DNA from: Marsupella aquatica
Lineage: Eukaryota > Plantae > Marchantiophyta
Direction: 5' to 3'
Length of the DNA stretch: 64,000 nucleotides
Assembly: GCA_973895155.1 (NCBI GenBank)
Contig: OZ316891.1
Location: 18,409,987-18,473,986 of the forward strand
Under the pieces are notes generated by a model. The model was not told the origin of the DNA, made no database searches, and saw only the letters and a program-made list of their open reading frames with translations. Positions within the stretch are counted from its first letter, which is position 1; each line of letters begins with the position of its first letter. Below, piece by piece: positions 25,172-64,000 of this stretch. A program made the translations under genes and the position numbers.

Positions 25172-25269
25172 GTGAGTGTGTAACAATACTTTGCTATTTT
25201 CTCCTCATATTCTTACAAGTGAACCAATGTTTACACCTATGGTTGTTTGTGGGTTTTTGGATGAAATAG

Positions 25270-30830: not shown

Positions 30831-31559
30831 TTACCTTCAATGTCACTTATTAATTTTGCGAACTATTTTGCGAACAAGATTCCTTTGCAATACCTTCGCT
30901 AAACATTTCCGATAAAATAATATTTGCAACTTGTCCATTCCCACATCCTCGCAATCTTGCGAATCAACCCGCATCATAAATTTGCGAACCGTATTTCATC
31001 GCAAGCATTGTTGCCAAAGTCGGCATGATATTGCGATATTAGTCTCTTCGCATAGTTGCCATACATTCATGTTCGCAAACTTGCGATAGAATGAGTCTCA
31101 CAAAAGTCCGAGCGAGGGCTGATGACTCACAAAAATATTGAGGGTATTAAGATCGCATAGTAGTTGCGATGACGAACGATTCACAAACGCGTCCGAATGG
31201 AAATGATATCGCAACATGTTTGCAATTAAGTAAGCACCGCAAGCATTTGAGATGGATTCCGCATCGCAAATTGGGGTTGCGATGCTATTATGATCGCTAA
31301 TTGAGATGAGTTATTGCAAAGCGAGCGATGGACAGTGTCTTGCAGGGCGTTTCAGCGCAACTAAATCGCCTTCGCAAAAAGGCCCAATATGTAGTAGTGA
31401 TCTTGGATACTTTGGTGGGCACCAATCTAGAATTTCACTCTTTAATAAGTAAAAGAAGATACCTTACAGGAATGCTCCAAAGTATCGTTTATATATAGAT
31501 GACATCTCGTTCATAGATAACTTGATAACAATGGCAGAGATCATCCCATCTATTTTGCA

Positions 31560-33174
31560 AGTAGACTCCTAGCTGCTGCTAAAAAGAACTATTCTGCTAC
31601 CGATCGAGAAGCTCTAGGGATAGTCTACTCGTGCAAGAAGTTTTGACACTACTTGCTGGGCTACAAGGTAGTATTTCACACTGACCATAATGCTCTGAAA
31701 TATATGGTCAACAAACCTGATTTGATTGGGAGAGTGGCAAGGTGGATGCTACTACTCCAAGAATTTGACTATGACATCCGGGTGCGGCCAGGTAAGCAAC
31801 ACACAAATTATGCTGATTTTTCCTCCAGGATTGAAGGACCAGCAGATGAGAAGGTGATTGATGATCAATTCCCTGATGAGGACTTATTCCAAGTCAATCT
31901 CAACCCGCCAACCTGGTATAAGGATATCATCGATTTTCTATCCTCGGCAAGGATGCCAAGGGAGATGAACCAAGAGGTTGGTGCTGTCTTTTTGAGAAAG
32001 ACCAGACCCTACAGGCTGATCAAGGGAGTGCTACACAAGGAAGGAGTTGATGGAACGATCAGGAGATGCTTGGAGAAGAAGGAAGTAGAGGTAGTGATAA
32101 GAGCTTTACATGAAGAAGAGGCCAGAGGACATTTTGCAGCAGCAACCACATCAAGGAAGGTCATGGATGCTGGTTATTGGTGGCCTACTTTGCACAAGGA
32201 TGTTCAGTTGTTTATCAGGGCTTGCGACCCCTGCCAACGGACAGGTAAACCAGCTTTCTCGCAACATCATCCTCTTACTCCAATTTTGCCTCTAGCTCCT
32301 TTTGAGAAGTGGGGTATTGACTTCATTGGTCCAATCACCCCAGTCACTAAGAGTCGCAAGAATAGATACATCCTACTAGCTACTGATTATGCTACCAAGT
32401 GGGTAGAAGCTAGACCAACAGCAGGGGACGATGCCAAAACAGTGGCCAGATTTCTATATGAGCAGATTTTCTGTAGATTTGGACCACCCTTAGAACTAGT
32501 GAGTGATCGGGGGACCCATTTCTTGAATACAACTATCGAGGAGCTTACCAACCAGTATTGGGTGAAGCACCAAAAGACCACTCCTTATCATCCGAAGGCT
32601 AATGGTCTGACAAAAAGAGCTAATGGAATCATTGGCAAAATTCTCAACAAGACGGTGGCATCTCACAAGACTGATTGGGACGTCAAGCTCTATTCGGCGG
32701 TGTATGCTTACAACCTGGCCTACAAGACCACAACAGGTCAGACGCCATACTTCCTGGTTTTTGGACAACACGCTCTTGTACCGGTTGAATTTGAAGTGCC
32801 TTCCTTGAGAGTCGCTTTGGAAGATAGAATGCCGGCGGGTTTAAGTCTAAGGGAGAGAACATGCCAACTGGAGAGATTGGAGGAGACTAGGGAGCATGCC
32901 AGCGAGCGCTTGGAGCATCAACAGCAGCTTGCAAAGAAATATCATGACAAGAAGATCAAGCCCACCCCACTACAGACTGGTGACTTGGTCTTGCTATGTG
33001 ATTCTCGCTATGTCCATTTCCTGGGTAAGCTTCATACTCGCTGGTTGGGGCCATACAATGTGCATACTGTTTTTCAGAATGGCTCAGTCCAACGTACTGG
33101 CAACATTGGAGGGTGAAGTTTATCCAGTCAGGGTACACTTTGATCGGCTCAAGAAGTATCACATGGGAGTTTAG
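31560..33174 (+). mobile_element. pol: Ty3/Gypsy pol fragment: RNase H C-terminus + integrase
   Basis: KNYSATDREALGIVY, HTDHNALKY, RVARWMLLLQEFD, HHCC zinc finger (H...GHF...YWWP...CDPCQ), DDE core (WGIDFIGP, SDRGTHF, YHPKANG), GPY motif. Stop at ~31645 and frameshift near 33090. Confidence 0.93.
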
Positions 33175-34780: not shown

Positions 34781-37700
34781 TAAGGCTTATTAGCTCATAA
34801 GCGAGGGTCTGACACTCTCCCACTCCAAAGGTCGTTGTGGGTGTTCAGGGGTTATTAATGGTGGATAAATATGCTCATCAAAATGACAATCTAAAAATCT
34901 GTCTTTAAAAATGTCGCCTGTTGTAGGCTCCATATATCTGATTATGGACGGTGAGTCAAATCCGATGTATATCCCCAACTATCGTTGGGGTCCCATCTTG
35001 GTTCGTTTGGGTGGAGTAATGGGGACCATTACTTGACATCCAAATGAACGAAGGTGGGATAGATTGGGTTTGATACCGTTAGCAATTTGGTATGGGCTAT
35101 AAGTATTAAAAGCTGATAGGCAGTATTGAATTAATGCGTTAGCCTGTAATATGGCATGTCCCCATGCTGAGACGGGGAGTTTCGACTGTATTAGTAGTGG
35201 GCGTGCAATTAGCTAGTGATGTACAGAAGTCGTCAAATGTTTCAGATGTGAATTCCCCTGCATTGTCCACCCTTAGTGTCTTAATGGGGTGGTCAGGAAA
35301 TTGTGCCTTCACGCGCAAGATTTGCGCCAAGATGCGAGGCATAACCATGTTCCGCGTCGAAAGTAGGGTCACATTTGACCATTTGGTTGATGCATCGATC
35401 AGTACCATAAAGTAGCGGAATGGTCCGCTCGGTGGGTTAATTGGCCCGTAGACATCCGCATGTATGAGGTCCAAGAATTTTGGTTGACAATTTTGATGTC
35501 GTGGGCCTTGTTATTAGTTTGCCGCGTGAGCATGCAGTGCATGGAGTGCTAGCTGGAATGTGGTGTATGTTAGTTGGAATGCCTCATGAATTCTTAATAA
35601 TTTTGCTTAGCATGGATTGACCGGGGTGGCCAAGGCGTGCATGCCAAAGTGCAGGCAATTCACTTTGTTATAGTGCATTGTTATGCAAACATTCAATTTC
35701 GGTTACGTAAAACCCGCATGGGTACGAGAAAAGAGTTTCTTTAATGATTTTCCCCATAGGGGTATTTTTAACCAAATGGATTACTTCCTGGTCTTTTGTA
35801 TTGCCTGTGTGGACGTGTAGTCCATTTGCTTGTATATCCCTAAAGCTTAGAAGATTACGGGTTGCATTTGGGGCGAAGATAGTTGATTCTATCTGGATTT
35901 CTGTACCCTGCGGAAGTCGAATAGAAGCTGGGCCGAAGCCCTCTTCTATCTGGCTTGGACCATTGATAGTGGTCAGTGATCTACTTGAAGGTGGACCCGT
36001 AAGTTTAGCCATTCTTGGCGGGCTCTAGGTAATTCGACCAATTTCTGGTGGTCGAATTGGGTCTTAAGCGCTGTCCATAGCTCGCGAGGGGTGGTGAGAT
36101 GCATGTACTGTCTCTACAGGAACCTATGGATATGGCGTCTAAGAAATACTAGGGCCTTTGATTCATTGGCCTTGGTTAGCGGATCTGGTTGAGGTTCGTC
36201 TGCTAGTATGGGTTGAGCTATCCCTATAGCTGGGAGTAGGGTTAAAGAGGTCAGGTTCTCCTTGAGGTTCATGGACCACTCGAGGTAATTGTTACCATCA
36301 ATTTCTAAGGCTGGGAAGGTCAATTTCTCTAGGTTGGCCATCTAGGGATGCTATGTCTCTAGCTTTCTAAGTTCCTTTTAATGGTAAAAGTTGACAAAGT
36401 ATATTTATGCGGCATGCAAGTTTGCTTTTTAGGGTTCTTTAACCCTAAATGCATTTTAGGTTGGGTGCCGCATGCCATTTAAATGTAAAGGGTTGGTTTT
36501 GTGAAAATGTGCACTTAGATTCGAGTTTTCGTGTGTTTATGGTTAATTGCATATTTCTTTTGTATTCTGTGTTTTCTTTGTATCGATTGTGCGGTTATCC
36601 GGGTTTGCAGTTATGGTTACGTGCAACTTCTCCTTTGTAAGTGAGATTTCTTTGACAGATTGTGCGCTTAGGTATTTTGCACTTAAATGTGCATTTATGG
36701 TTAAGTGCAACTTTTCCTTTGTATCTAAAATCTCTTTGACGGATTTTGCAATTAAAGAGGGTTTTGCACTTAGCAGCGGTTTCTCGACGTTCCTCGACGT
36801 TTTTCGATTGAATGTTGTGAGATTTTTCTAGCACTTGGCGGTTGCGCCCTTTGTGTTCTCGTTGCTCTTCTCTACCTCCTTCTGCAACTCCTCGTTCTTG
36901 CCTTCGATTTGTTTCCGAGTTCTTTCAATCCCTTCTTACGGCATTTCAGTTTTAGCCTTTCTGCTGCTTCGTTTGGCTACGATAGGATCTCTCTTGCTTA
37001 CTTCTTTCTCGATCTTCTATTCCTGCTCTCTGGCTCTTCCTTTTCTGAATCTTTTTGATTTTGTTTGTTTGCTCTCCTTTTTCAATGACCGATGATTTCC
37101 TGATTCTGTTGCTCGGCCTTCCTTCAAATGTCTTCTTGGATTTCTATTCATTCGATGTCCTTATTGGGTTTCGTTTATCCTTCGCTTTTCTTTAATCCTG
37201 CTCTTTCTTTTGATTCTATTCCTTCGATGTCCTCATCAGGTGGCGCCTTATGTTTTTGATTAGTTTTCTTCTCACTCAATCCTTGTTCATGCCTTTCTCA
37301 GCTTTTCTCTTTCTTTCTTCTATTTTCGCTTCCATGTATGGGCAAATTTTATTTCCCCGTGTCTTCATATGTTTTTCTTCGCTTCTGGCAATTTTGATCT
37401 CTTCACTCTTGAATTTCTTTTGGATACCTGTTGTGTCCTTTGATCTCTCTCGGACTTTGCAATTGGCATTGGGCGCCTGCAGGGTCCTTATGGATTTCTC
37501 TTCGAATCCTACTCTATTCAATCCTTAGTTTTCGATGCTTTCCTTATCAATTTACTTCTCAGCATGCGGCTCCTCATTGTGTTCTCGATCCGTATCGATC
37601 CAAAGCAGTTGAATGTTCCTTATGGTCTCTTTTTCTATTCAATGCTTTCTTTCAATCTCCATAGCCCTTTGAAAAATTCATGGCCTCCTTGCTCAGCCAC

Positions 37701-39065: not shown

Positions 39066-39909
39066 ACTTGGTAAAACCCAAAATCCCCTTTTTACCACAA
39101 AAACCTCTTCTTTTACATTTTCACACAAAACCAAGCTATTCTTCATATAATCTAATTCCCTTACGACATTCACCCCCACTGAATCTGTGCAGCCTCCGGT
39201 CTGCACCAACCTTCGTCTTCCTCTTCTTCTTCCAAGTTGTCTAGCGCCTCATTTCCTCCAAACCCACTCCTTTGTTTGAAAAGTTTGACTCGTTTCCCTG
39301 CATAAGGTGTACGATGCTCTGTTCCATCCAACTCTCGAATGCTGTAAGTCGCATTTTCATGAACCTTAGTCACCACATAAGGTCCTCCCCACCTCCTTGC
39401 AAACTTCTTAAGTGCCGAATGTTGATTATCCAAACTGTTGTCTGAAATCAACACCCAATCACCTTCGCGGATGGGAATTGGTCGGAGTCGATGGATTTTG
39501 TCAAAGCGAATCTTGTTCTTCAAGCGCGCCTCTGTCACCCTCTCCCTTGCAAGCTTTATCATTTCTGGCTTAAGACTGAAGTGCTCAATCCTTCTTGCAA
39601 TCAGCTCTTCAGTGGAGACCGGATTTCTCCATTCTATGGTGCGCCAACTATAGACATCTTCCTCAATTGGCATGAGTGGTAGATGCCCTTAAACTAGCTC
39701 GACTGGTGGAAACCCAGTGACCGAACTACAAGTGATTCTATCAGCCATGAGTGCCAAAGGTAGCAATTCAGGCTATAGTGAAGGCTTACCATGACACGCC
39801 TTCACTAATGCATTGACAATAGGTGGATGTCCTCTTTCACTTTTGCCATTTGCCTCTGGATTGTAAGCTGTGGTTAGCTTGAGGCGAATATGAAATTTCT
39901 CTAAGAATT

Positions 39910-40893
39910 GGAAAATCTGATGGTTGTTGTGTGCTTTGTGTGGGACTCCTTGAGTCTATCCCACATATTTTCTTCTCATGCAGGCACGCCAGCAGGTGTT
40001 GGACTGATGCTCATGGGTGGATGCATGGTGCACTCTGCAATGGAACGCCATCCATGATTGGCCTTATCAAGTCTGCTGTGGGAAAATTACCTATTCACTC
40101 CCTTCGGATCTACACTACCTATCAGATTTTGTGGAACATTTGGTTGGCTAGGAATGCTCAGACTTTTGACCGGACTAGACATAGGATTTTTGATCAGATG
40201 CTGATTATTTCGGAGACCCTGGACCACCTGACTGCTGTTGCTGCGGCTACTTCCGTGCTTTCTCCTTCATCTTTGAGCCGCAAGCACCGGCGTCTATCAA
40301 GTGCCAAAGAACTGCTGGAGATCGAGCGCATTCACACTCTCAGACGTGGGTCGCTTCGGATTGTTTCCTCCATCATTTGATGGCGGCCTTATGAGAGATT
40401 GATTTATACTATGTGGCTATCTGGGAGTTTTGACTTCTCCTTTGACACCGTTACTCCCGTGATATATTTCCTCATACAGAGTGCCACTACCTCCCGCACT
40501 GTTTTCAATCTCTGTAGCTTATGGCTGCACCACTCTTGGTGGCCCTTACAGTTCATGCCGTTGGTTTTTTTCCTTCTCCCGCTACGGTATACACCCTCTT
40601 CTTACTAATTAGGTGGATTAATTCAGTACTAGACAATGGTTTGACACTTTACACTTTTACTCTGCTGACCTACCGCGCCTTTTGGTGCTTATTCCCTAGC
40701 TGTTACTTGCTGCATGGAACACTAGTAGAACGGCTTCGTAATCTTTACCTGATCTGGTGACCCTGGTTGAGTAACTCTTTGTTATTGCCTCCTTTGGGTG
40801 TTGAGGTTTTATGATGCCGTTTGGCCTGCTGGTTCCCCCATTCATGGGTTTCACGCGGAATAAATGTATAAAAAAATAAAAAATAAAAAAAAA
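39910..40893 (+). mobile_element. 5'-truncated L1-type LINE (3' end of ORF2, 3'UTR, poly-A)
   Basis: zf-RVT motif CVLC...ESIPHIFFSC and LWNIWLARN. AATAAA followed by an A-rich tail at ~40859-40893. Confidence 0.85.
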
Positions 40894-46314: not shown

Positions 46315-48722
46315 TCAAGGCAAAAGAAGCCTGCCTTCTTTGTGAAATTTAATTTCGGGATAGGTTCTCTGTCTTAGAAGACTTGCGTTCGCCCCATAGA
46401 GTGGGATGCATGTCTTCCGCTTCAACCCGCTGTGAACTGCCGCAAATTCAGATACTGGATATCTAAGCACCACATCTAATGCCTCCTTCAGAGCATGATT
46501 CCCATGTCTGCTGTCAAACAGATTCACGAAACACAACTTGGGCAACGTTTCCAGGATCTCCACTATTGTATTGGCCATCGTCGTGGCTGCACAGTGCCCG
46601 ATTTGGTTGCCCAAAAGATTAAGCCATTCCAGCTGCGGCGCTTGTCCCTCACCTAGAGCTTCAAGAATTGCCAGCATTCCATGGCGAAGCCTGAACTCAG
46701 TCCCAATTTCACAGTATCCCAAGTTAAGCCGTCGGAGCCCTGAAAGATGCCCTGCTTGAATTACCCGCGATAAGGCCAATGCTCCCTTCACATTCAAAAT
46801 ACAGATAAGTTAATTAGACAATATATAGAGGTGGCAGCGAATCCGGTGGTCGGCTGGTGGAGATTTTTCTGAATGACCTTTAGCTCCCTTGTACAGCAAT
46901 ACTTCTCGACCTACGGTGAGGCACATCACGAAATGTGTGGCTTAAGAGTTATTACAGTTCTTTAACGAATTGAAACCCGAATGTAGAATATACGCGTGCA
47001 ATAATCTTGAACGACGTGTACCTGATCTTTGAACTTGTTCCACGATACGTCTAGATGCTCCAAATTGCATAACTGGCCAGACTCGAGTCCTTGCATAAGA
47101 GTCTCCATCTGCTCTCCATCAATGCCGCACGAAGAAAATCTCAAGTTTTGGAGTAACACCAAATTTCCGTCTTCTATTAGCCTCGCCAGCGCAATGCTCC
47201 CCGCGACGCCGATAGTGTTGCACGAAATATCGAGAGTTTGCAGGTTTATTGCAGGATTGCAGTGCAAAGCCCTCGCTAGCCCTACCGTGCCGTTTGATCG
47301 TAGCAACTGTCCCTTTATGACGAGCTTCTTAATTTGGGTCATATGTCCTGCCTCAAACAATCTGTGTACATCTGACGCCGTTGGCTCCTCGATTGGATCC
47401 GTGCCTGCAAGTGATATGAGTTTTTCTCCAGAGTCAATGATTCTGCGTTTGATTGGATACTTAATGAGATGGCTGATTCACAACTATCTACACAATTTCA
47501 GCTTTGCAGTCAAATTCATAATTGGTAATCTCCGTCGTACTGAAGGTCTTCACCTGAGAGAACCAAGGCTTTCAACTGCGTAATCTTTCCTTCATGGATA
47601 GCATCCGCAATCTCCCCAATATTGCATCGTGGCAAGCCAAGGTGTTCTAAATTTGCGAGCCGGCCGGACTTCAGCGCCTTAATAATTGCAGCGTTTCCCT
47701 CATCTGTGAAAGTACAGTGGCCGGACAAATCGAGGAATCGTAGGACCGGCAGATTGCCGACGGTTAGGAGTTCTGCCATCATGGTGATAATCTTCTCGTT
47801 TTCGAAGAGGCAGCCGGAAAGGTTGAGTACCTGCGATAACACTCGCAACACGAAAACATCAATCATCACCAGCCGGGCAGATTTCCAAGAATTAATCAAT
47901 GACGTATCTAAACACTTTCTGCAAAAGTTTGTTTCTCAGTCTCCAAGGAAAAATCTCTCAGTTTGGAGGAGTTCTCGTCATAAATGATCAACTTCTGCAA
48001 CTTTTCTTGATCTGAAAAATCGCCAAATTATATATATTCAATGGCTAGTGCTCTATCTATTGCAGCATTGTACTGCCATGGTAGGATGGGCGGGCTCGTC
48101 TATTAAAGTAACCTATTGGTCGTCTATTCAAGAACAGCTCCTAAGTTCTATTCAAGAACAGCTCCTAAGTTCAGGAAAACTCGGACAGATCTATCATGCT
48201 GCGCATTTTAATTCGGATAGTGATCAATTCACGCCCATTCTTATAATGTTGAGGAGGGGCTTGAACGTTCATTTTTCATACGAAGGTCATTGTTCTATTT
48301 CCTGTCGTGATTAACCGTCCTCTATGCAGAATCCAGGAAACTCGGTAAAACAGATTTGTGAATCGTTATTGGGAAAAGCTTTGCGGGAGGGATTCCAATC
48401 TTACTTGTAGTCTGGACAGGTCAACTTCCCTCATCGCCGCTATAAGGAGAAGCAATTGCGGATCCCCGACTGTCCGCTCCCTCTCGTGACCTGTATAATG
48501 CAGGTCAATGCACTCGCTCTTCTCCAGCTCATTCAGGATGGAGGAGATGATTTCCTGGATGACATCTTGGTCTTCGTCTGGATTAACCTCCCTCAGTTGG
48601 AAGAGGCTCTCTTTCAAGACCGAGATCCCGTGCTGGCGTGGGAACCCCATGGCTGCAGAAAAGCTATAAGATCGCATCGACGGCTCGCTGGAAGAGCGAC
48701 TTGGCTGCCGTTGAAGTCCCAT
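46315..48722 (-). CDS. RNI-like (ribonuclease-inhibitor-type) leucine-rich repeat protein, ~482 aa, 4 exons
   Basis: Exons 48722-48405, 47830-47554, 47404-47022 and 46785-46315 join in frame (1449 nt). Repeated LxxLxLxxCxI/NxI units with GxxxLAxxL helices (LQTLDISCNTIGVAGSIALARLI, LEHLDVSWNKF, LRRLNLGYCEIG). Confidence 0.85.
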
Positions 48723-51299
48723 GGCTGCCTGCTGGCGAGCTGTATCACGACTTCACGAGAGAATGGAGGAGGGTATTCCCCGAAGAACCAGACAGCGAAG
48801 TCTTTCATTCAGCTATGGAGGCTGAATCCGTATGCGCACAATGACGACAGCGATCATATGACGTCGTGTGAGTGGTGGTAAGTGATCACATGTCTGCGCG
48901 CTTCTAATCATCGCTCCCAATCCTTCGATTTGACGATGGACGACATGGCAGCAAAACATGTGCACGAATTCTCAAGCATATGACTTTCTTCTGCACGGCG
49001 CTCCTTCAGTAGAGACCTCTCTTTCTTCTTCCCTAAAACCATATTTTAATTAAAGGCCTCTTTCTCCAAAGCCGGACTCGACTACTTAGGGGGACTTTCC
49101 AAAGACTGTGGGGGCCTTTCAGTCTCTCCATCCAAAGCCAAGCTTACCCATATACTAACGTTAAAACGGTCAGTCCATATCCTAAAGTTAAAATGCCTAC
49201 TGTAGTTGGGTTTCATTGGAGGTAATAAATTCAAACCCTTGAAAAAAAAGCTACACTACAGCTTGCTCCATTTTGTAGACCACCTGGAGAGGACTTCCAG
49301 GCAGGGTTTTGACCAAAAAACAAGTATATATATCAGCACAAAAAAAGAGGGACGCATTAGGGGCCCACTGGCAGATGAATTAGGTTTGGTAATGGTTTTG
49401 ATTGTGCCCTCAAGTTCATGTAAATTGAAGTTTGGATTGTTCACAAATTTGAATGACTAGGATTATTGCTGCCCCCAGTTCTCGCATAACCAGGCTCAAT
49501 TTGACCAACCTGCCCTCCTTTGTGAGTGTTGGTTTGTGAAGGAGCAAAATTGGTTACTTCTGTCATCGTTCAGCTTTCCCCTGGCCAGTGAAATTCACGC
49601 TGGGATGTATCTACACAGCTGCCAGGTTGCAGCTAAACTGCCGCTGTCTCGGGAGGAAAACCAGGTGGATCCAGGCTACCAAATTAGTCACTAATCTTAG
49701 TTTTTAAGTGAGAAGCAAAGTGCACTATAATTTTGTTCTCCCCAAAACTGCTGGGCACGGGTGGTTTCAGAAACTCTTAGATTATTAAAATTAATACATC
49801 CAAACACAATCTCATGAAATTCTAATTTTCATAGGAAGAGGAATCTCATAGAGTCAAGGTTACCCAAGGTAACTATAATTAATTAAATTACACCTGCCCC
49901 TATAAAAAGGGTTACAAGTAACCCCTAGCTCTCATTGTAAAGAGCACAGGTTCAAGAATGGGTTTGAACTCCACAAAAAGTGCTGACTGCAAAATATTAT
50001 TTTGGCAAGTATTCCACAACAGTGCTAGTAGTGGTGAGACATGGAATGAGGCTTCCATGAGGCTTTATAGTGGTAGGTGTGATGTAATCAACTACCCAAT
50101 ATTGATCAATCTTACTTTGAGATGGGAGTGCCAGGTTGACTCTAAGAGCATTAATACCTAAGTAAGAATTCAGAACTTTGAATAGCACCACGTCATACTA
50201 ACCCGGCCAGTGTCCACTAATTGTTGAGTCCCACGCAAGTCACTATTTTGATTCTCTTCATCTATTATTGGTGAAAAATATTTGTGGAATCTATTATGAG
50301 AAACAAACAAGTCACCCAAAAGAAAAAGAAAAACACCAAGAACAAAGGATTTAGTAAACCGATCCGCTATTGTATTCAGCGTACGTGGTGCTAGGAAGCC
50401 CAAAGAAAATGGCATTGATGCAATTTCTGTTTGAGTTGACACGGAAGTTAAGATTTTTTCATTGTAGCCGAAGCAATTTAAAGTCCTCCCTTGGCTGAAA
50501 TTGTTCAATGTTAAGCTGTCAACAAAACATTGGAAATTGGAAAAGTAACGCTTTTCAGGAGAATGCACAGTGCACAAAGAAGGAGAATTTGTTTCAGAGT
50601 AAAGTTTACCAAAATTTGGACTCAAAACTTATTTAACCTTAGTCATCCCCTGTTGAGAGTTATTGGTGATGACTAGAAGCTATTGAAAGTCGTCTTGCGC
50701 AGGAAATTGTGCAATGAAATTGAAAAACTGTTAGGCGGTTATTTTGACCACTGCACTCCCGGGAGACCCTCACCTCATACAAATGTGGTCCTCCAACTGA
50801 ATTAATAAAACAATGAGATGAAAAGTTGGAGGATTAAAATTTCATCTTGGCCCAGACATTAAAAACATCAAAATGCCATTTCATAGCTTCCACATTATAC
50901 TACTTGACTGATAGAACCAGGACTGATGGATATTTTTTTTGTCTTTTTCTTCACTAGCTTGTGTATGACAAATCTTTTAATGGCATATGACCACTCTTTG
51001 TGGCATAAAGTTATGGATTATAAATTTGGTAGTTCATAATTCTAATCTTAGCTTAGTAATTAAAGTACATCACATTTTGAGGTTTGTGAGGTTTGTGACC
51101 CCCTCTTGGCACGCATCTGCTTTGCCATCCTCATTGATTGATAGTTTTAACTATGATTAAAATGCTGTGTAAATATGGATTAGTGTTGGTTTTGAAGGTT
51201 CAAACTGAAGCCGCCACAATTCTACTGTAATACTTTGGTGAGTACGTTGGTTGTTTTGGCAGCTGGTAATTAAACAAGGTAATTAATCTCTGAAGGATT

Positions 51300-51373
51300 C
51301 GTCGTGATACATGCATCCGTCAAATATCTTTACTCCGGACACATAACTACTGACGGATGCATGTATCACGACG
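51300..51373. other. Perfect 23-bp inverted repeat with 28-nt loop (hairpin)
   Basis: CGTCGTGATACATGCATCCGTCA (51300-51322) pairs with TGACGGATGCATGTATCACGACG (51351-51373). Confidence 0.9.
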
Positions 51374-54300
51374 TGTTTGACTAATTTCTCCAGTGGATCT
51401 TGGATGATTGAGCTCAAATAAACAGTGTGACCTTTGGAAACTGATTCAAACTCGTTACTGCAATAACATATTAATAATTGTTGCCATGCAACCTTGGGAG
51501 GTTAGGGGCGACCACTACAAGGCAGAGTAGGTCCAGGGTTCGTACTCGGCAGTCAGTCGACCTGCACCAGTGGGAGGACATCACAGTAGTTTTTGACACG
51601 GTGGAATCTGCATCGAAGGGTCAGGTCAGGTCATAATGTTACTCGATTATTAGAACGAATTGGGCTGGCCTGCTCTACATCATGTTATGCGATTCATTGT
51701 GAACGAGTTGGACTACATTATGAACAATTTGTTACAGTACTACCCACCAAGGTAGAATTGTCTCGAGCGCTTGGAATTTATCGTGCCCACATGCACGCAT
51801 GATTCTTAGAGGTCCAGGTCTGCAAGTCGGGCCCCAGCTCAACATCGGATTGTAAGTGTTAGCTAGACTTTTCTGAACATATTCATTGATCCTCTTAAGA
51901 CTCTAGGACTGTCAGGACCCAATTCAAGAAATGATTCATCATTCGAAAAGTACCAAAAGTTGAAGTGTCTCGGAAGTGAAAGTCAGTGCGAGACTGATGC
52001 TTTATTGAACACCTTCAAATTAGGTGCAGATCTCAACAAATGCTTGTAATCGTACAAATCTTGAACTTCCTTAGTGTGATTCAGCTTTCCACGGCATAGT
52101 GTATTCATCAGTTTGGAGATTTCAGGTGCATTATAATATCCCAAAACTCGAGTATGTGCTTTCATTTGCAAAATAATGGTCTGAAAACATTGATTTCTCG
52201 TGTGCGGTGTCACCGAGTCGGACGTCTCCAGGAAATATTTGCACTGAATTACTGGCCAGCTACAGATGTTTTGCACTTGGACACAAACTGCGAAATTTCG
52301 TTGCTAGAATAATCACTGCAAATCACCCGTGTTATACTCATTTTGTCCTCAAAAATTAAACTTCCCTGAGATGGCAACCTGGCTCGTGATTGCGCTTGAG
52401 AATGAGTGGTGCGAATTGTAACATTGGCCTGAATATTGCCTCCACGTGATATTGGCCATGCAATATGCCTAAAACCTTCTGTAGCTTGGTTTATTTCACA
52501 AGTCCTGTCAGTGCAGAAAAAGCAAGACCGCTGTACATATTGCCATGACAGGAAGCCGCCATCCCCTGATCAAGCTTGTAGCGATCGTAAGTAACGACTG
52601 CTTGAGAAAGCCCTTGACATTTAAGATTCTAGACTGCTTCTGTACGCAAATCCTGTTGTGACGCCGGCCTCAGAAACAGTAGTACTGTGCAGTGTTTCGG
52701 TGTTTCCTGTGGCCCACATTATGTCAAGTGTCGCCAAAATTTCACGGGTGAAAACTAACAGAGAATCTGCGTGCAGGAAGATGCCAGTCAGAATGATGAA
52801 GAAAGTTTGACATTCATCCTGATTCAGCTCGATTTCAGATGAGGAGGGTACGGACAGAGAAGGGAAAATCATGAGCTTCCATGAATCCACAAACTACACT
52901 GGGTGTGTGCCACGTCAAGTAATATCTTGGAGTTAAATAAGATTTGGGGTGGTCATTTCTACCAGTTTGGGATATGACAGTAAAAACTGCTATGCCCAAA
53001 CCTCCCAACCATTCCAGTGAACTAAAATCATGTTGATGTGGATCTGGAGTTTTGTGCTGGTGTGTGTATGGTTGTTTTGCCTAAAATAAACAAATGAATT
53101 AAAATTCATTCAAAAAGCCAACATGCAAAAGCAGTGTGAATGGGTTGCTTGTGGGGTGTGTGCACGCTCGACAAGTTATTGTTAGGGTGTGTCAAAGCAC
53201 AGTTGTACCTGAGTGAGTTACGACACAGGATATAAAATTCACTTATGGCCAGGATAGAATCTTAGTGGGTTACCAAAATACGTACCCCATAAGGGTGGTA
53301 CATCCAAAAAAATTAAGCCATAACCAAGCCATAACCAAAGTGTTAGGAGAACTTTGACACGCCCTATTGGAGTAAGTGTGGTTTTCTACATTCCACTATC
53401 CTTAATCTAAATACACATTTTGCCATTAATAAATTGATTACTACATTGCATGTAGTCTATTGCCACTGTTGGTTCAGCAAAGTAACTATATAGTTTGCTC
53501 AAACTGTGCACATTTGACCAGGTTATATCAATGTATGGTGATAGGTCCAAGTCTTTCACTGGAACTACAAGTGACACCCTTTTCATTGTGACACCCTTTT
53601 CACTGGGACTTGCCACGGATTGGTCAAATTCTGACTCTCTTAGCTTGAGAATTTGGTTGCATGTAGCAAAACAACCTGATTTTGACAATTGCTTGTGATA
53701 ACCACGCTCCCTGTTGAAATCAACCTGCAAAGCAACGTGTGGCAGTTGAAAGAATGCCAAACTGCTCAGGCCATTGCTGAATGAGTCCATAACAATTTCG
53801 TGAGAAAATCTAATCTAAACAATGCAAACTGTAAAATTTATCCTATTTGTTGACTTACTACCAGCTTTCCATCCTAATCAGACTTCTCTCTTCTCTAAGC
53901 TTAATCTCTATCCTTCTCCATTTGGTGAATAGTTGCGCTAACACTAGTAGAAAATGGGGCCTTTTATGACTATGACACATATGACTTATGTGCTCAAATG
54001 ACAAAATATGTAAATGACATAACATAAATGACATTGAAATGACTGTCCAAAATGACGGGGTGCAAAAAATGACTAATACTTGCAATAGTGTCATTTAAAC
54101 CAATGAGCCAAATGACTTTGACTGCTATAATGACAACAATCATGAGTTGTAGTCATTTTGGACAGTCTTTGTGAATGACACAATTAACAAAAACTCTGTC
54201 ATATCAGTGTTTCACATATGGGAAGTCATTTCAGACGACGGTGACTAATGACTAATAAATCAAATATGCAAATATCAGTGTTTAAAAATGTTAGTAGTCA

Positions 54301-54829
54301 TTTAAACCAAAAGTGATAAATGACATGATAAACAACATATGACTATTTTGAGGTTTATGGTTTAGTACATGTTTTAGGGTTTAGGGTATGATTAGTCATC
54401 CAAAATGTATGGTAGTATATATAAAGACCAGTGGCACTCACATATTAGATTTGAAATACATTTAGAGACCTAACAAGCCTTCTTTTGTTGTGAGTCTCAT
54501 CATTAAATTGATGTACAACTTAAAGGCTTGATAATCTCTAATAAGTATGTACATTTAAATATATACTTGCACCCATTCATTACATCTTTCCTATATATGC
54601 CAAGGACTCCTGAAGTGTTTACATTCCTTAAGCTGTATTCACATTTCACATGTTTGAGTATAGATGGGGGCATGCAAGGTTGCCAAATAACACTCTCTGG
54701 CATAGGTCTAGGGTTTAAGGTTTAGAATTTAGGTACTACATGCCTATATTTGCTCATGTCATTTTTTTCAATATATTATTCATGTTATTTGCAAAGGATT
54801 CCCAATCATTTTTCCCGTCATTTTTGCTC

Positions 54830-56770
54830 TCACTCAACTTTCTAGTCATTTGACAAGTGCCGCTAGATGTCATTTATGCAAATGTCATTTGGGATGTCAA
54901 TGTTGTGGTCATGTATGCCATGCAGAATATGACTCTTAAGAGCCTTTGGTGGCTGATTGACCCCATTGGTGATAGGGGCCGGCCATTAAGGATGATACCC
55001 ACTTCACATGGTGCGGGATAGGGTACTTGACAACCCTGGGCCACTAGTTATGCCACTTGGCCTCCACAACACTTTTTAAAACACACATTTTGCATCATGG
55101 AAGGGCATCACCCAACTTTGGGCAAAACACTCCCAAGTTGTTTGACTTTGGAGTCATTTGCCCAAAGTAATTTGGTCATTTGCAAGGGATCTTGAGTCAT
55201 TTGTGCGTGTGACTAAAGGTTTTTGTCATTTGTGGAGTGCCGAGGGGTGTCATTTAAGCAAATGACACAAAAATAAGTCATTGATGATGTCAATGCGGCA
55301 GTCAAGCATGCCATGGACAATATGACTCCTTGGGGCCTTTGGGGGCTTATTCGCAATATACGCGATCGTAGCCGGCCATTAGGGATGCTACCCACTCCAC
55401 ATGGCGCGGGATGGAGTACTTGTACACCCTGAGCCACTAGTTATGCCACTTGGCCTCCACAACACTTTTTAAAACACACATTTTGCATCATGGAAGGGCA
55501 TCACCCAACTTTGGGCAAAACACTCCCAAGTTGTATGACTTTGGAGTCATTTGCCCAAAGTAATTTGGTCATTTGCAAGGGATCTTGAGTCATTTGTGTG
55601 TGTGACTAAAGGTTTTTGTCATTTGTGGAGTGCCGAGGGGTGTCATTTAAGCAAATGACACAAAAATAAGTCATTGATGATGTCAATGCGGCAGTCAAGC
55701 ATGCCATGGACAATATGACTCCTTGGGGCCTATGGGGGCTTATTTGCAATATCTGTGATTGCAGCTGGCCATTAATTAGGGATGCTACCCACTCCACATG
55801 GTGCGGGATGGGGTACTTGTACACCCTGAGCCACTAGTTATGCCATTTGGCCTCCTCAACACTTTTTAAAACACACATTTTACATCGCGGAAGGGCATCA
55901 TCCAACTTTGGGCAAAACACTCCCAAGTTGTATGACTTTGGAGTCATTTGTCCAAAGGGGTCCAAATCACTCCCATATGGTCATTCCCAAGCCATTTTCA
56001 GTCAATTGTGCCTGTGAGTCATTGTGTTGGTCATTTTATTAGTGCTAGGATATGTCATTTATTCAAATGACACGGAAACGAGTCATTGTTCATGTCAATG
56101 TAGTAGTCATGCATGCCATGGACAATATGACTCTTCTGGCCGCTGATCGGCCATTGTTGGTGATAGGGGCCCGCCATTGAGCATGCTACCCACTCCACAT
56201 GGTGTGGGATAGGGTGCCCCTCAATCCTGGGCCACTAGTTATGACTAATTGGCAAAGCAATAGTTTTATGACCAAACTTTTGCACAATGATAGGGCATCA
56301 CCCAACTTTGGGCAAAACACTCCCAAGTTGTACGACTTTCAAGTCATTTGCCCAAAGGGGTGCAAACCACTCATATTTTGTCATTTGCAAGGGATTTTGC
56401 GTCATTTATGCAAGTGACTGAATATTTTCGTCATTTATAGAGTCATAGGATACGTCATTCCTGCGTATGACACAAAAACAAGTCATTGATGATGTCAATG
56501 CGGCAGTCAAGCATGCCATGGACAATATGACCCGTTGGGAGTTTCGGGGGCTAATTTGCAATATCCGTGATTGTAGCCGGCCATTAGGGATGCTACCCAC
56601 TCCACATGGTGCGGAATGGGGTATTTGACAACCCTTGGCCACTAGTTATGCCAGTTGGCTTCCACAACACTTTTTAACATGCACATTCTGCATCATGGAA
56701 GGGCATCACTCAACTTTGGGCAAAGCACTCCCAAGTTGTACGACTTACAAAAATGGTCATTGATGTCAAT
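54830..56770. repeat. ~400-bp tandem array, ~5 copies, within CACTA-2
   Basis: Anchor cactagttatg at 55042, 55435, 55832, 56233 and 56640 (periods 393-407). Each unit contains gggcatca(c/t)ccaactttgggcaaaacactcccaagttg and multiple GTCAT motifs. Confidence 0.93.
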
Positions 56771-57429
56771 GCAACAATCATGTAAGCCACACACAATATG
56801 ACTCATTACACCCCTTGATGACATATTCCGCCATATTGATGGTAGGAGCCGACCATGAGTTACATACACAAAACAATGATATATATAGGGTGTACGACGG
56901 AACATGCATAATTATGTTCATAAAAGGGCAGGGTTTAGGGTGAAGTGTTAAAATTAGACTAAGTCAGTCCACAATTATGTTTGAATGGGATCCTTCTAAA
57001 CATACCCCCAAGCTCGCCCCCAAGACCTCATCAATCAATAAGCTCCCCCTTGTATGTATTTATATGTTTTGGGGGTCATAATGAGTAATGGTTTAGGGTG
57101 CACATGGCCCCCCCTTTCCTAAGGGTCTCCCAAGTCTTTTGATGGGGGATAGGATCACAGCATCTGGACCGTCTATGTAGCATCTATAATCATCCCCTCA
57201 TGCAATCGTGGCCCTTTGCACAGGAATGTTATTTTACACTACCTTGCATTGGATGCCTTCCTTAGTCCGGTCAAACATCAAGAACAGCATATCGAATGTT
57301 GCGTTTTGTGTCCCAGTCGGTGCAGGTTTACGTGTAGGGTTTACCGTTGCAAGGCAGTGCATGCTCAGGCAGAGTGCTCTCACATTGTCACCCGACAACA
57401 TTAGGGCTGTGAGTTTCCTCGTAGCGATA

Positions 57430-57575
57430 AGCGGGGAGTTGAGGTGCGACCTTCAGTTGGTGTTGTGGGGAGTGAGTGCGCAACCTTGGTGCTGCGGGGA
57501 GTCAAGGTGCGACCTTGGTGCTACGGGGAGTCGACGGACTAAACTGCGGGGAGTCGATCGACCTTGGTGCTGCAT
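57430..57575. repeat. Degenerate GC-rich tandem repeat (GCGGGGAGT...GCGACCTTGGTGCT)
   Basis: About 5 imperfect units seen directly. Confidence 0.7.
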
Positions 57576-60500
57576 TCATGGGTAAACACGTTGACGGACC
57601 AAACGATAAGTGTGACAGGCTTCTCGTTTGGGCCACCCCAAATTTTTTCTAAGTGTAAAATGCGACGTGATACAAACCAAGATTTCCTACAAAATCAAAC
57701 ATTTTCAAGCGCAAAATCAAAACATCTCAAACTTTGACTAGTGAACCTTACAAAACGAGGTGGAATGACATTTTGTATCACCAAGTTTTATCGAGGCAAT
57801 ACGAAATATGATACGGGGCATCACATTTCACATTCCTTAACAAGTAAATTCGATGTGATTGCTTTATCAATAGAGAATATTCCAAAAAGATACCAACTAT
57901 GGTCAAGTTAACCCATTAATAATTGTACTATGGTAAAACTTAACTCGACCACAGTACAAACTAAACTAGGCTGAATCTGAAAAGTATATATAAAGGACCA
58001 CAAAAAATAATTAGCTTCATAATTTTGTTTTGTGTCCTCTAACCCATGTTACTCCTTCCTCAATGTTGAAAGCAATTGTCCATACAAACCCGGATTCAAC
58101 AAGGCCACCGACTAAAATGCTAGTAGTTATCCTCACTTATCCTCCTTTTCCTTTACTTCAAACCCAAATCTGATTCTTTGTATCACATTTCAGATTCTTA
58201 ATGTTACTTTACCATTCAAAAGTGATAGAGTACTCTTGAAAGCAAAACCCAAATCTGATACGCTGTATCACATTTTGGATTCCTAAAGGGTTGAAAGAGG
58301 TATTAGTTTGAGTGGGAAATGAGGGTATTGGGCTTGAGAATTAGATTTTGGATATACTTGCTTGAACAATCCAAAATCTGATACGTGTATCAGATTTTGT
58401 ATTCTTTATAGAGATTTTGTAATTTTGTTTCGGTGATCATCCTTTGCATTCCAATGCAAATTCCTGGTCATTTTGAATCTGGTGTCGGTATTCCTATATC
58501 CAATGCTCTCATCACGGACGAGACTTGCTTCCTCTCTGTTCTAAATTGAACAAATGCTTCCGGGGATCCTAAAGGTGAGCCAATCTGACGTCATTGACAT
58601 AGAAAATTGAGTAGACAACATTTATCTGGTTTAGTGGGTGAGACGTAATATGAAGAAATGTCTTTGTCACTTCCCTCTGAATCGGAGTCTTTAATGTCTA
58701 CTTGGGGCTCCACTCGCTTAGAGGGTGGAAGTTTGGCTTGCAAATGAGAAGGAATAAATCTATGAACAACCCCGGGGGAGGATTGGATGTAACTAGCAAT
58801 GCTTTCTTATGACTCAGAGCTAGACATGGTTATCATAAACTCTATACAACCCAGGTTTTCTCACAAGATGTGCCTCTACGACTGTTTAAATACTACAAAA
58901 TTTTCAAAATCTTGAGCACCCCACAAATGAAAAATATGAAGGTCCTATGAAAGTGAAGCTCAAAATTTGATGACGGACCATGCTTTTATAGTTTTGGGGT
59001 TGTGTTTGCCACGTGGCATAGCTTGATTGGTTTTCACTAAGAGACAAAATATAGAAATGATCTGGTTTCCAGAATTTTGAGAGCATTATGATCCAGGTAT
59101 CATGGTTAGGATTATACTCAATGTTTTGCTTCTAGTGACAAATGGACTGACCAGGTGTTTTGATAGGAGGTTTTTGGGTGTTCGCAATAATTCTGATCTG
59201 TGTATCATGATTGTAATTCCTCTCAAGGTTTGGAGGACTGGAAAATAATTTAAAGCATGTTTTTGAAGATGTGTTTTGAGTTTGGGAACCCAACAATCCA
59301 AGGATCACAAATTAATTGAATTCCTCCCATTATTTTATGCGCTAGAAAATTATTTGTATTTTCAATGGGTAGTTTTGTGTATTGGCAACAATCCATGATC
59401 CGTGGATCATGGTTGGGATTAGGTTTGATGGTTTGAATCGTGCAACAGTGTCATTTAGTTGTGAGTCTTAGCTTAACCGGAAGTGAGTTAAAGTAACTGA
59501 CTATGGATGTAACTGCGCAGTTGCATGGTAGTCCCCAAACCTTGGGTTCACATGACGATCAAATTTGGAGTTTTGGGTATCTTTCAATTCATAAATTATT
59601 ACTATTATTTTGAATTTGTTGTCAAACATCGTTTGGGCAGGTTGCAAAAGTCAATTCGTAAACTGAATCCAAAATTTGATACGTGGTATCACTTTTGGTA
59701 TGTGAAAAGTTAAGCGTACTGTTGCTCATCATAAAAAATTTAGTTTTTGGTCAAAATCTTGAGTTTGGAAACAATTGCAAAAATTTATCTAACACATTTT
59801 ATTTTTCCAAATGTGTGTATTCTAGTCTCTAGTCTCTCGCAAAACATGACATCCAAATATTTTATTTCCAAATCATTAGTTTAGCTCCCAAAACGTCACT
59901 AGGAGCAATACGAAAACTGATCCATTTCTTAATTTTTTTCAAAAAAGCTTGTTTTAACAAAAAAACATGTTTTGTATTACCATTTTTTGCAAAATCTGAA
60001 GAGGCTTCTCGTTTGGTGGTCACACTTCTCGTTTGGTCCGTCAACGTGTTGGTAGACATTGAAGGAGGGCCGCTGCGCTTGGCTGCCATTGTCGAGGCCC
60101 CGGGTCGAGGCAGGTAGGAGGACAGCTGCTACCATCGTCGAGGGCAACCTGCTTGCAAAATGGGAGAGTGATGAGTTGTTGTGTGGGAGGTGCGGGTTTC
60201 ACCGTGGGGAGGTTTGCACTTGGAGGTTGAGACCAAGCTCTTCATTGGAGGATTGCCTTATTTTGACTGCAAAGGTTTTTGAGAACCAGCTCAGTGGAAC
60301 TCAGCTTGCTCAGTGGAAACTTGTAGCTTCTTGTCACTAAGGTTGGCTGCTTACAGAGCAAGCTTGGTGGAGAAAGGACTCCGCAACACCGTTGCTCCCT
60401 CGGACTATCTACAGAGCGCAAGCTCCTGTATGTGCAAGTTGAGACCCGGGACCTTCAATGTTGTAGTTGCCTCCAACCTGCAACGCTGCTGCAACGCCAT

Positions 60501-62614
60501 TGCTCGCAAGCTGCTACAGAGCGCAACCTCTTGCGACTTCCACCTCAAAGGTATGACATGGATGATTGGAGTCAGTGGATAGTTGCGCATTCTCTGTCCA
60601 ATTTATGTGGCACTACGTCCCCCAAGTAAGTATCTGGCCGTGCTGCAATGTTGTGCTTCGAGCTGCGATGAAGGTGGACATGCATTAGAGATACCCTGTG
60701 TGTCCCAAGCACTAGAATAGACTGTGGCCTACTTTGCTTTGTCTATCCTTGAAGTTGCTTGATGCCACACACAGCGGCTTCATCACATCAAGTGTTCCGC
60801 AGACTCTCGTCTCTTATTTCAAGCTTCCTATTTCTACCAACATTGCTCTGAGTCTTAAAAAACTTTAATGATCAATTCCTCTTCAATGCTCTCTGTTGCT
60901 CTCCAGAAGTTTGCGTTCCTGACTGTATTCCTGTTCATTTTCTATTCATTTTTGTTCAGTTTATGTCCTTGTCTGGCCATACCTCAATTTTTGTCTTTTC
61001 TCATACTCTGCTTACTATGCTTTGTCATGCAGTATACTCATTTACTACAGATTGAATGTGGAGCCGATTGGAGGTGGGCATTGGAGTTGCGATGACCAGC
61101 AAGGTGAGTCCAAGAGGATTGCATCCTCAAGCTTAGGGAAAGAAAAGCTCTTTTTTCCTTGTATCCCCCGTTCTATCCTACTCCTCCTGCATGCAATAAT
61201 TTCTAACTGTATTCTCGTTTCTTACCTGTGTTGGACATACGTGCATTCTAAAGAGACTAGTCGCTGCTGAGGTGCCGCGATTGGATCTGCATTGGAGCTG
61301 CATTCCTGCCTGCATCATCCAAAGATTCTAAGGAGGATTGGAGCTTTGTTTTACAATTTGCGCCATCTGTAAGTATCTTGTGCTCAAATACTAGAGAGCA
61401 GTCTTACAAATTTTTTGCAATGCTGTCAGAGGTGTCTAGATTGTTGGACTATTGAATTGGTTGCCCATTCTTTGTGTTCTTCCTATTGCTGGTACTTATT
61501 TTTTGTGGAACATCCTAGTGAATTTAAGCTACGCAAATTGCCATAAGTCACAAAGGCATCTTTCATGCCATCTGGATATTGTGCCATCAAATTTTACGTT
61601 CCATTTCTTACATGATTGTGTTGGACTGACATTGGACCTGCATATCTGAAGAGACTTGTTGCTGCACCGGTGCGGTTAGTATTGGATAACCCTAAAGCTG
61701 CATTCCCACAAGCTGCAGCATCCAGGGATTCTAAGGAAGATTGGACCCTTGTTTGGTGGTGCTGCTACACAAGAAGGCTCCAGTGGAGGTGGGCTTGCTT
61801 GCATCCATGTCGTGTGTTTGTTGTTGTGATCGATTGGGTTGCTGTTGAGATTTATTTTTCTTGAATTTAGAAAATGCTTAATTGAGTCGTCTTGACTGTT
61901 TTTTCTTCACTAAGTAACAAGGCGGCCCCAAGAGACTCTGAATAAAATCCCTAAATCCTTGAAAGAACATCATTTTAAGAGTTGTGGTGACTTTCTACAG
62001 TGGTGACTTGATGTGGAGGTGAGCTTATTTCTCAGTGAAGGGGGGCCCAGTCCACTGTACTCAGATAATGACTTGTGTGCAGTGGCTAGTATACCAGTTC
62101 CTTTCTTTGTGCAAGTAAGACCTGTGAATGTTTAAATGAGTTTTTAAAAGGATAGAGGTTTTAATCCGATGTAGTTAGCCCCCCCCCCCCACAAGAAGAG
62201 CTACAGCCCTGTCTATACTATCCCCAGTCGCTACTGAATTCTACCTGCTCCAACAAGTATTGAATGAGTACAATTTCAGTGAACAATATTTAATTTGTGT
62301 GCTCTATGGTCTTCACAGTGGTTGCCTTTTTGAATAAACTTCTCTTTGACTCTTCTGAACATTTTTTCCAAGTCTGCCTGACACTAAACCCTGAACTGCT
62401 TGCTCTCTGTGCAGAGCACCCTTAAGCCAAAGCCAAGTTATTTTTGACATTGCTTGTACTCCGTGAGATCAAGGTGGGCAGGACATCTCCTGATTTGTAC
62501 TAAGACCTCTTACGGTAAGTACACTATGTCCACATACCATCTTTGTACTTGTCTGTTGCCCTTCTCCATACACTTCTTGTAATATTCAAGGTAATTACAT
62601 GTGCAGATCCACGC

Positions 62615-63328
62615 ATGACATCGGGCATGGCACGAGCTGATGCTGCCTGGCTGGATCCAAAGTTTGCCCATAAAGAACACCTTCGCTTGGATCCCCCTTG
62701 TTGTTTTGAATGTGATGAGGGAGGCACTATTTTGTTTTGCGATGGGCCTTGCAGTCATCATTTCCATTACTTAGTTCATGGCCAGCAAGCTCCTCAGGAG
62801 CCTGATGGCCATGGGCCTGAGTGCACACCCGTTGCCATTTCTAGAGGGCATGATTGGGCCAAGGAGTGGCTCTGTGACCTCTGTCAGCAGAACCAAGGTC
62901 GTTGCTTTGCTTGTGGACTACTTGGCCGAACCCTAAAGCCCACTACAGATGAGCCCCTTGTGGTCCAGTGTGCACAAGATGACTGCTCTTCTTTTTATCA
63001 CGTGGGTTGTCTGCGGACCATACTGAGGGCAAGGGAGTTGCCTCTCCTGGGGTACGCACAAAACTCAGATGCACATCCCGCTGCTCTGATATGCCCAAGG
63101 CATTATTGTGATGTTTGCAAGGAGTATCGGGATGGCATCTGGGAATTCATCCAGTGTCGTAGGTGCCCTCGTGCGTGGTGCAGGGATGAGGGACCATAGG
63201 CAGACAAACACCTCAAGAGAGGGGTGAAGGGTAGAGAAACGTGGGATATTGGTCCATGGCGTATGGTGTACTGCAATCGCCATGTCATTCCAGAGAGTTC
63301 TGATGTGCCACCTCATGATTTCAAATAG
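62615..63328 (+). pseudogene. EDM2-like: Stand-alone EDM2/NSD-type triple PHD-finger cassette (~237 codons), intronless, one in-frame TAG
   Basis: CFECDEGGTILFCDGPCSHHFH...WLCDLCQQNQGRCFACGLLG...VQCAQDDCSSFYHVGC...ICPRHYCDVC...IQCRRCPRAW. After TAG 63197-63199 the frame continues RETWDIGPWRMVYCNRH. The order and spacing match the EDM2 PHD array (CxxCDNGG..CCEG.C..SFH; CF.C..LG; CGxFYHPxC; CPLHKC; CRRCPKSY; RAW...IYCxxH). Confidence 0.85.
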
Positions 63329-63499
63329 ATGATAAGCCTTAGTTCAGTTGTGTAGAAAACACTGCCTAGTACAAAGTATATTGAACTTGTCATGGGTTAA
63401 GGACTTCTGGAGGATACTGGACACAAAATGGACTAAAGGGGTACAGTGGAGCACCAGAGTTTTTTGTTGGATGAAAATAGAGTGAAGTGCCAAGTTGGA

Positions 63500-63612
63500 T
63501 TCAATGGACTAAACTGAAATGGACTAAAGCAGGATGATTGTATGAAATGGACTAAACTGCCTGATTGTATGAAGTGGACTAAATTGTCTCACTGTATGAA
63601 GTGGACTACACC
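63500..63612. repeat. ~27-bp tandem repeat (GGACTAAA...GTATGAA)
   Basis: 4-5 imperfect units seen directly. Confidence 0.75.
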
Positions 63613-64000
63613 TGTGGTTGAGACTGTTTGCCCTAGAGTAGAGCAACACTTAGTGGAGAAAGACCAGTATCAATTCTGATTGTATGATGACTGTTACAGC
63701 TGTACTCAGCAATATATGAACAGCCTGAATGGAGATACATAACAAAAGAACTAAAACACTAAAAAACATCACACTGACCTTAGAGGCAAGACCTAAAATC
63801 CACCCAAGGTCTTAAAAATGTTGTTGTCCCTTTGAGGGATCTGGCCATAAGAAGGCAAACTTTACATAATGTCTCTCAAGTTTTGTAGTACTGCCTTTCT
63901 AAACCTACAGCCTTAAGAACTCCTTCAACCCTTCAACCTGGGTCGATCTCTGAACTTCGTCATTTTTGATAATTTTGAAGACTGAGTGACTGTATTTTAT

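Follow-up and report, generated by a model that had tools for sequence, protein, structure and literature searches.

The triple-PHD gene at 62615–63328 is a broken member of a small family of conserved PHD-only proteins. This family is likely to have derived from short EDM2-like paralogues of liverworts and, on balance, the gene appears to be a passenger of a CACTA transposon that begins at 53942. Throughout, 'the window' denotes the whole stretch of Marsupella aquatica DNA that was analysed (64,000 bases), and 'the cassette' denotes the triple-PHD coding part.

The coding exon and its premature stop

The coding exon and its elements were delimited as follows:

62615–63328, plus strand: triple-PHD coding exon, 237 codons when read through one stop
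62702–62884, plus strand: PHD finger 1 (C30–C90), ligands intact
62903–63103, plus strand: PHD finger 2 (C97–H163), PHD_NSD, ligands intact
63107–63283, plus strand: PHD finger 3 (C165–H223), cut by the stop in the window copy
63197–63199, plus strand: premature in-frame TAG at codon 195 of 237, a sense codon in both P0002 and P0003

Three Cys/His clusters were encoded in a single frame, from the ATG at 62615 to a terminal TAG at 63326–63328. The read-through protein matched PHD_NSD above the Pfam cut-off (E = 1.5e-9), while PHD-1st_NSD (E = 0.015) and PHDvar_NSD (E = 0.07) fell below theirs. An earlier note on this DNA had described a triple-PHD block with its own ATG just after a TGCAG acceptor and a stop directly after the last ligand. 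The ATG was indeed found eight bases past TGTGCAG (AG at 62605–62606); a second ATG at 62627 aligned with the start of P0003 and with a Met of P0002. The description of the stop did not survive, since the terminal codon lay 14 codons past the last ligand and the in-frame TAG at 63197–63199, which had gone unmentioned, breaks finger 3. This codon precedes H199, C220 and H223, and therefore finger 3 is destroyed in the window copy; the ORF proper comprised 194 aa. In all three full-length members of the cassette family, the HxxC of finger 3 was replaced by CxxD/E/K, with a conserved His further on. The note had also reported that other EDM2 domains were absent, and none was seen elsewhere in the window, either by tblastn with 159 relatives (39 stray matches outside the cassette at E <= 1, the best with E = 0.042) or with a profile of 8 full-length liverwort paralogues, which produced nothing better than E = 1.8 outside the cassette.

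Upstream of the coding exon, two further features were identified as candidates:

60051–62514, plus strand: candidate multi-exon non-coding leader
62515–62606, plus strand: 92-base intron candidate (GTAAGT...TGTGCAG) within the 5' leader

The PHD coding part is likely to be one exon behind a spliced 5' leader, because the exon before the candidate intron had an in-frame stop 22 codons upstream and contained no ATG. The gene had been described as lacking introns; this applied to the coding part, but a candidate intron precedes it. An exon-like stretch was duplicated within the leader (61218–61351 and 61604–61754, 71%). Splice-like motifs in 60051–62620 differed between strands, with 13 vs. 3 donors and 9 vs. 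3 acceptors when overlapping matches were included, a bias that is weak because the same patterns produced none on the ABCG gene of the window.

Intact stand-alone relatives

Close relatives of the cassette numbered three among 117 candidates, and the same three among 1193 when a profile was applied. Two of these were intact and had the same boundaries as the window copy: P0002 (247 aa), which was 67% identical to it, and P0003 (226 aa), which was 54% identical over the alignment. The third, P0004, was a 128-aa piece that had P>Q and R>C changes relative to P0002 and ended just before a Gln; it may be a second decaying copy or a fragment from a contig end. All three belonged to unannotated sequence and were without informative names. 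In alignment with P0002 and P0003, the window copy had no frameshift, and it retained 29 of the 30 Cys/His residues common to both relatives and 82 of 98 other common residues. A relative-rate test (17 vs. 10 changes in 224 columns) was not significant (p = 0.18). Its premature stop looks recent, given that 29 of 30 family Cys/His residues have been kept. Because intact relatives share the same boundaries, almost all ligands persist, no frameshift has occurred and the relative rate was unexceptional, the family would seem to be under purifying selection, and not debris.

Longer, fused forms of the cassette were absent from 155 candidates, although this was a weak test. Searches for the loci of the relatives gave 122 pattern matches in the metagenome and 28 in viral contigs, none of which was confirmed in either case. 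No member of the cassette family was found among named proteins, though named paralogues of four liverwort species were; such an absence is as expected if annotation masks the cassette as a repeat. When compared with a protein-cluster atlas, the cassette was most similar to a streptophyte PHD_NSD cluster of 339 aa (0.93), with all unnamed clusters below 0.9.

Probable origin from liverwort EDM2-like paralogues

A profile search of 1.84 billion representatives returned 229 matches, the best 150 of which were analysed. Immediately after the cassette family, short EDM2-like host proteins occupied five of the first six places and six of the first seven among these best 150 of 229. The named short liverwort paralogues were:

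Marchantia polymorpha: Mp1g03210 (P0007) and Mp4g03050 (P0009, 280 aa)
Riccia sorocarpa: P0008
M. paleacea: P0010
Calypogeia fissa: P0011 and P0013

The cassette was about 30–33% identical to these six. Three motifs, D/EPPxC, QC[RL]RCPxxW and C[PS]RHxC, which were picked after the alignment had been seen, occurred in 8, 9 and 12 of the best 150 of 229 relatives respectively, and in 5/6, 6/6 and 6/6 of the named short liverwort paralogues. Among the matches listed, the relatives with the three motifs were mainly the cassette family and these six proteins.

Two trees were estimated: a quick one with 52 rows, and a more careful one with the 31 left after removal of 21 long, gappy or redundant rows. 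The cassette family (100/98) sat on a long branch and grouped with the short liverwort paralogues (94/89, unstarred); in the careful tree its branch exceeded the host paralogue branches several-fold. An AU test did not reject a grouping of the cassette with canonical liverwort EDM2 (p = 0.106). Descent of the cassette family from short liverwort EDM2-like paralogues is likely from these comparisons.

Four of the six named liverwort paralogues end 19–20 residues past the last ligand, so that the 3' end of the cassette need not be a transposon trim and may have been inherited. Five of the six have 410–540 residues before finger 1 that are absent in the cassette; Mp4g03050 is also without them. 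On this comparison, the derived feature of the cassette is the loss of these N-terminal 410–540 residues. The earlier note had envisaged a transposon capturing precisely the heterochromatin-reading module. Its EDM2-type origin and stand-alone design were upheld, but the precision of the capture was weakened, because the likely donors already end after finger 3, host PHD-only genes exist and the window copy is broken. Annotated EDM2-like genes with PHD fingers only occur both in Marchantia (P0009, 280 aa) and in Triticeae (wheat and Aegilops; the P0096 cluster, 259–339 aa). A SET domain was identified in none of 33 relatives by Pfam and, with a sequence motif, in none of the best 150 of 229; PF12047, the RFD-like domain, was present in 8 of the 33 relatives scanned, and EDM2-type C-terminal motifs in 75 of the best 150 of 229.

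Other short proteins were observed in the same data. The P0096 cluster, P0121, P0138 and P0150 formed a separate clade of short (about 260–345 aa) PHD-only EDM2-like proteins. Beside the liverwort paralogues there were also six unnamed, short and mostly long-branched EDM2-type PHD proteins (P0028, P0044, P0126, P0140, P0141 and P0146), possibly the result of repeated independent captures; the last four clustered as a separate clade in which finger 2 is shortened.

The CACTA surroundings

The surroundings of the gene contained several repetitive features, with a complete CACTA element elsewhere in the window:

20523–31399: complete CACTA, 10.9 kb, with an ATC target duplication
53942–54900, plus strand: CACTA left end, preceded by TAA and dense in subterminal ATGAC/GTCAT motifs; end sequence CACTAGTAG
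54893–56746: 393-base tandem repeat, 4.6 copies, with the subterminal motif
57585–60050: likely nested element of 2,466 bases, with 32-base inverted ends (31/32) and a direct GGTA duplication
63515–63608: 3.4 tandem copies of a 27-base unit, past the stop

The CACTA left end and the TE-like tandem repeats to which the earlier note had drawn attention were both found, the former at 53942, which is 8,673 bases upstream of the gene and without a matching right end before 64000, and the latter with units of 393, 29 and 27 bases. The end at 53942 resembled the ends of the complete CACTA, and ATGAC/GTCAT occurred 17 times in 54001–54500 against approximately once per 500 bases elsewhere. CACTA-type repeats extended to about 57.1 kb. 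With the nested element subtracted, the gene lies 6.2 kb from the CACTA end, a distance smaller than the 10.9 kb length of the complete CACTA. No matching right TIR with a 3-base TSD was found downstream in the window, which ends 672 bases past the stop. A right TIR at 59137 was considered and rejected, as it matched at 11 of 14 positions, was flanked by ACA instead of TAA and had no subterminal motifs; by a rough estimate about one 11/14 match would be expected by chance in the window, and two were seen. Tnp2-like sequence was absent from 56701–64000 when compared with the window's own Tnp2, no long ORF besides the PHD gene was found after 53942, and there was no host gene between 53942 and 64000.

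Base composition was compared between the gene region and its neighbours. The observed/expected ratio of CpG over 60051–64000 was 0.35 (70 seen, 201 expected); it was 0.42 and 0.40 for the two CACTAs, and 0.89 and 0.86 for the ABCG and LRR host genes. CAG/CTG (CWG) was depleted in both CACTAs (0.68 and 0.50) but not in the gene (1.39). A Gypsy integrase in the window displayed the same split as the gene (CpG 0.37, CWG 1.24), and CWG content was therefore dropped as a test of cargo status. Continuity across the nested element scored 38 (0/200 shuffles), but one of 21 control windows scored higher.

The nested element at 57585–60050 was unclassified; its ends begin AACACG, and it contained an internal 40-base repeat family and no long ORF. 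A 51-base motif at 57268–57318 matched 20258–20308, outside the complete CACTA (score 49, 0/60 shuffles), and each of the two sites follows a tandem array, of 393-base and 143-base units respectively, at a distance of a few hundred bases. The complete CACTA encoded a Tnp2/DUF4218 transposase on the plus strand (26343–29109, in pieces) and a second gene on the minus strand (21276–23372). It also contained a SET-domain exon at 25540–26100, which matched Pfam SET above the cut-off (E = 9e-5) and was interrupted by a single TGA, and an upstream exon near 24936–25170 with a small CxC-x2-C...C-x2-H motif.

Cargo, host gene or residue

Carriage by a transposon is plausible and, in our judgement, more probable than not. 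Cargo status was favoured because of CpG loss, the position of the gene, the lack of a host gene or right TIR from 53942 to 64000 and the SET exon of the neighbouring CACTA, and we consider it slightly more probable than not that the cassette travels with the CACTA itself; that it belongs to another element is improbable, while its being a host gene or a residue has appreciable though lesser weight. In the host-gene account, the cassette would be a fast-evolving paralogue or a retrocopy of a short EDM2-like gene, which by chance lies beside a truncated CACTA end in repeat-rich surroundings and has lately been reduced to a pseudogene or null allele. This is possible but doubtful. PHD-only EDM2-like genes are annotated in hosts, such as Marchantia Mp4g03050 and the Triticeae genes of 259–339 aa, but no named orthologue of the cassette was found even though paralogues from four liverwort species are named. 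Purifying selection on the family would suit a host gene, as would a spliced leader, which is ordinary in such genes; against this, the cassette branch is several-fold longer than the host paralogue branches, and P0004 resembles a second decaying copy, with a contig end also possible. While CWG is undepleted over the gene and neither a right TIR nor a transposase was found in the window after 53942, CpG depletion has reached the level of transposons.

An origin as cargo of a different element, in or beside the CACTA end, for example a Helitron or an unnamed family with the 57268–57318 motif, would fit with the second occurrence of that motif outside the complete CACTA and with the character of the window, which is a nest of insertions. 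It is improbable, as no ends of another element were seen around the cassette and repeats of CACTA type run to about 57.1 kb. Less probable again is that the cassette is a processed fragment in neutral decay, or a single exon from a larger EDM2 gene, both of which the earlier note had named as alternatives. The premature stop, intronless coding part and CpG loss would be expected of a fragment, but relatives that are 33–46% diverged keep the same boundaries and ligands, and decay of this kind is unlikely for the family. A larger host gene is likewise unlikely, since no other EDM2 exon was found in the window, the upstream exon contains an in-frame stop and longer forms were absent from 155 candidates (the weak test noted above). 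For the family, this explanation is largely refuted.

Predicted fold and putative mode of action

The fold of P0002 was predicted with a mean pLDDT of 77 and a pTM of 0.74 when 122 sequences were supplied, most of the core being confident; with 5 sequences, pLDDT was 31. The nearest solved folds to this model were the PHD tandems of NSD1-3 (PDB 9gbf, 4gnf, 4gng and 2naa; E = 9e-4 to 4e-3). Searches of PDB returned no match by sequence and 2 weak matches with a profile, and no EDM2 structure occurred among the sequence, profile and fold matches. In NSD2, D1240, D1247 and D1255 are reported to pair with H3K4, H3R8 and H3R2 (PMC11724302). In a register based on the Cys ligands, E35 and D43 of the cassette corresponded to NSD2 D1247 and D1255, while the D1240 site was occupied by P28, with D26 two residues earlier. 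Since two of three NSD2 acidic anchors are in register, finger 1 of intact members probably binds the H3 N-terminus.

The mark that would be read is a separate matter. NSD2 is described as reading H3K4me0 and H3K27me3 and as being blocked by H3K9me3, whereas NSD3 reads H3K9me3 through a tyrosine (PMC11724302); because the nearest solved folds read different marks, the mark read by the cassette cannot be inferred, and H3K9me2 specificity cannot be carried over from homology. H3K9me2 reading by the cassette would be an analogy with Arabidopsis EDM2, taken over at about 30% identity. In Marchantia, a large fraction of transposons is reported to carry H3K27me3 (bioRxiv 10.1101/2022.10.24.513474), so that the chromatin target may differ from that in Arabidopsis.

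The explanation that we propose, which as a whole has an even chance of being correct, is that the cassette family is a PHD-only offshoot of short liverwort EDM2-like paralogues and that it forms a passenger gene inside the CACTA starting at 53942. The gene would be the final exon of a plus-strand transcript that is spliced and may start in GC-rich repeats near 57.4 kb. Intact members would form three PHD fingers in tandem, with finger 1 binding the H3 N-terminal tail. Without an RFD, methyltransferase-like or catalytic domain, they would act by nucleosome occupancy, by competition or as an adaptor, competition being with host EDM2-like readers on the chromatin of the element. The window copy, whose product would not exceed 194 aa and whose finger 3 would not hold zinc, is probably inactive. 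An anti-silencing role is speculative. We think it unlikely, though conceivable, that bryophyte CACTAs have reduced a host reader of silenced chromatin to three fingers and maintained it by selection as a gene of their own, for competition with host EDM2-like proteins or for tethering the element's proteins to marked nucleosomes. Together with the SET exon of sister CACTAs it would then constitute a reader-and-writer kit against silencing, and the window copy would be a member that was disabled recently.

Comparison with known systems

The short liverwort EDM2-like proteins share with the cassette a triple PHD with D/EPPxC, CPRHxC and QCRRCPxxW, an end soon after finger 3 and the absence of a methyltransferase-like tail. 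They differ in being only 30–33% identical, in having HxxC where finger 3 of the cassette has CxxD/E/K, and in the stop of the window copy. EDM2-like proteins have been noted in bryophytes (PMC2956552), and none of the short liverwort proteins is described as transposon-borne in the literature cited here. When judged as a possible member of the EDM2-like protein (ELP) family, the cassette, on read-through and in P0002 and P0003, has the characteristic cluster of atypical PHD fingers, which number between two and a half and three (finger 3 being cut here), but it has no C-terminal N6-adenine-methyltransferase-like domain and no N-terminal RFD-like domain, and both were absent from the window also. 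Arabidopsis EDM2 has the same type of atypical PHD cluster, together with RFD-like, PGR, N6-adenine-methyltransferase-like and proline-rich parts that the cassette lacks; it is reported to bind H3K9me2 and to work with ASI1/AIPP1 (PMC7529245, PMC9910501, PMC4980392). PMC11982613 does not mention EDM2. The PHD5-C5HCH tandems of NSD1-3 are the nearest solved fold, and the acids that they use for H3R8 and H3R2 line up with those of the cassette; unlike the NSD/ASHR3 methyltransferases, the cassette has no SET domain.

Chromatin factors borne by transposons are reported to include VANC of VANDAL Mutator elements, SET in Phytophthora MULEs and PHD in the Rehavkus transposase (PMC6446971). For VANC, which has a demonstrated activity, sequence-specific DNA binding is described (PMC10398659). 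Capture of host sequence is described for Pack-CACTA elements, the passages cited making no reference to PHD (PMC13317346). In these systems, as proposed for the cassette, an element has a chromatin factor of its own or has captured sequence from its host; the cassette differs from VANC in being a predicted histone reader derived from the host and a separate gene, of putative passenger status and activity. A literature search with few subscription journals in its range listed no publication that describes either the cassette family or an EDM2-type PHD gene carried by a transposon. If the proposed explanation is true, a transposon with a host-derived reader of histone marks would represent a different route in transposon-host conflict from that of VANC and other known plant anti-silencing factors, which recognise DNA. 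The intact relatives (226–247 aa, predicted to be well folded) are small enough for work on binding and structure, which would bear on EDM2-type mark reading. If the cassette is instead a host paralogue, it makes a modest addition to the EDM2-like family.

Other features of the window

The 20-base CACTA-end pattern matched a metagenome contig, L001, which had only those 20 bases in common with the window and was taken as a chance match; positions 1–2394 of that contig, on the minus strand, read like the genome of a small RNA phage. Host genes in the window comprised a leucine-rich-repeat gene (46318–48752, minus strand) and an ABC transporter with an ABCG-like reading (1–4442, minus strand), neither with CpG depletion. 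Retroelement remains were located at 31647–33113 (plus), 35142–35510 (minus), 39173–39688 (minus) and 39883–40377 (plus), and comprised two integrase pieces, one further LTR-type piece and a zf-RVT LINE end. A perfect 23-base inverted repeat with a 28-base loop was found at 51300–51373.
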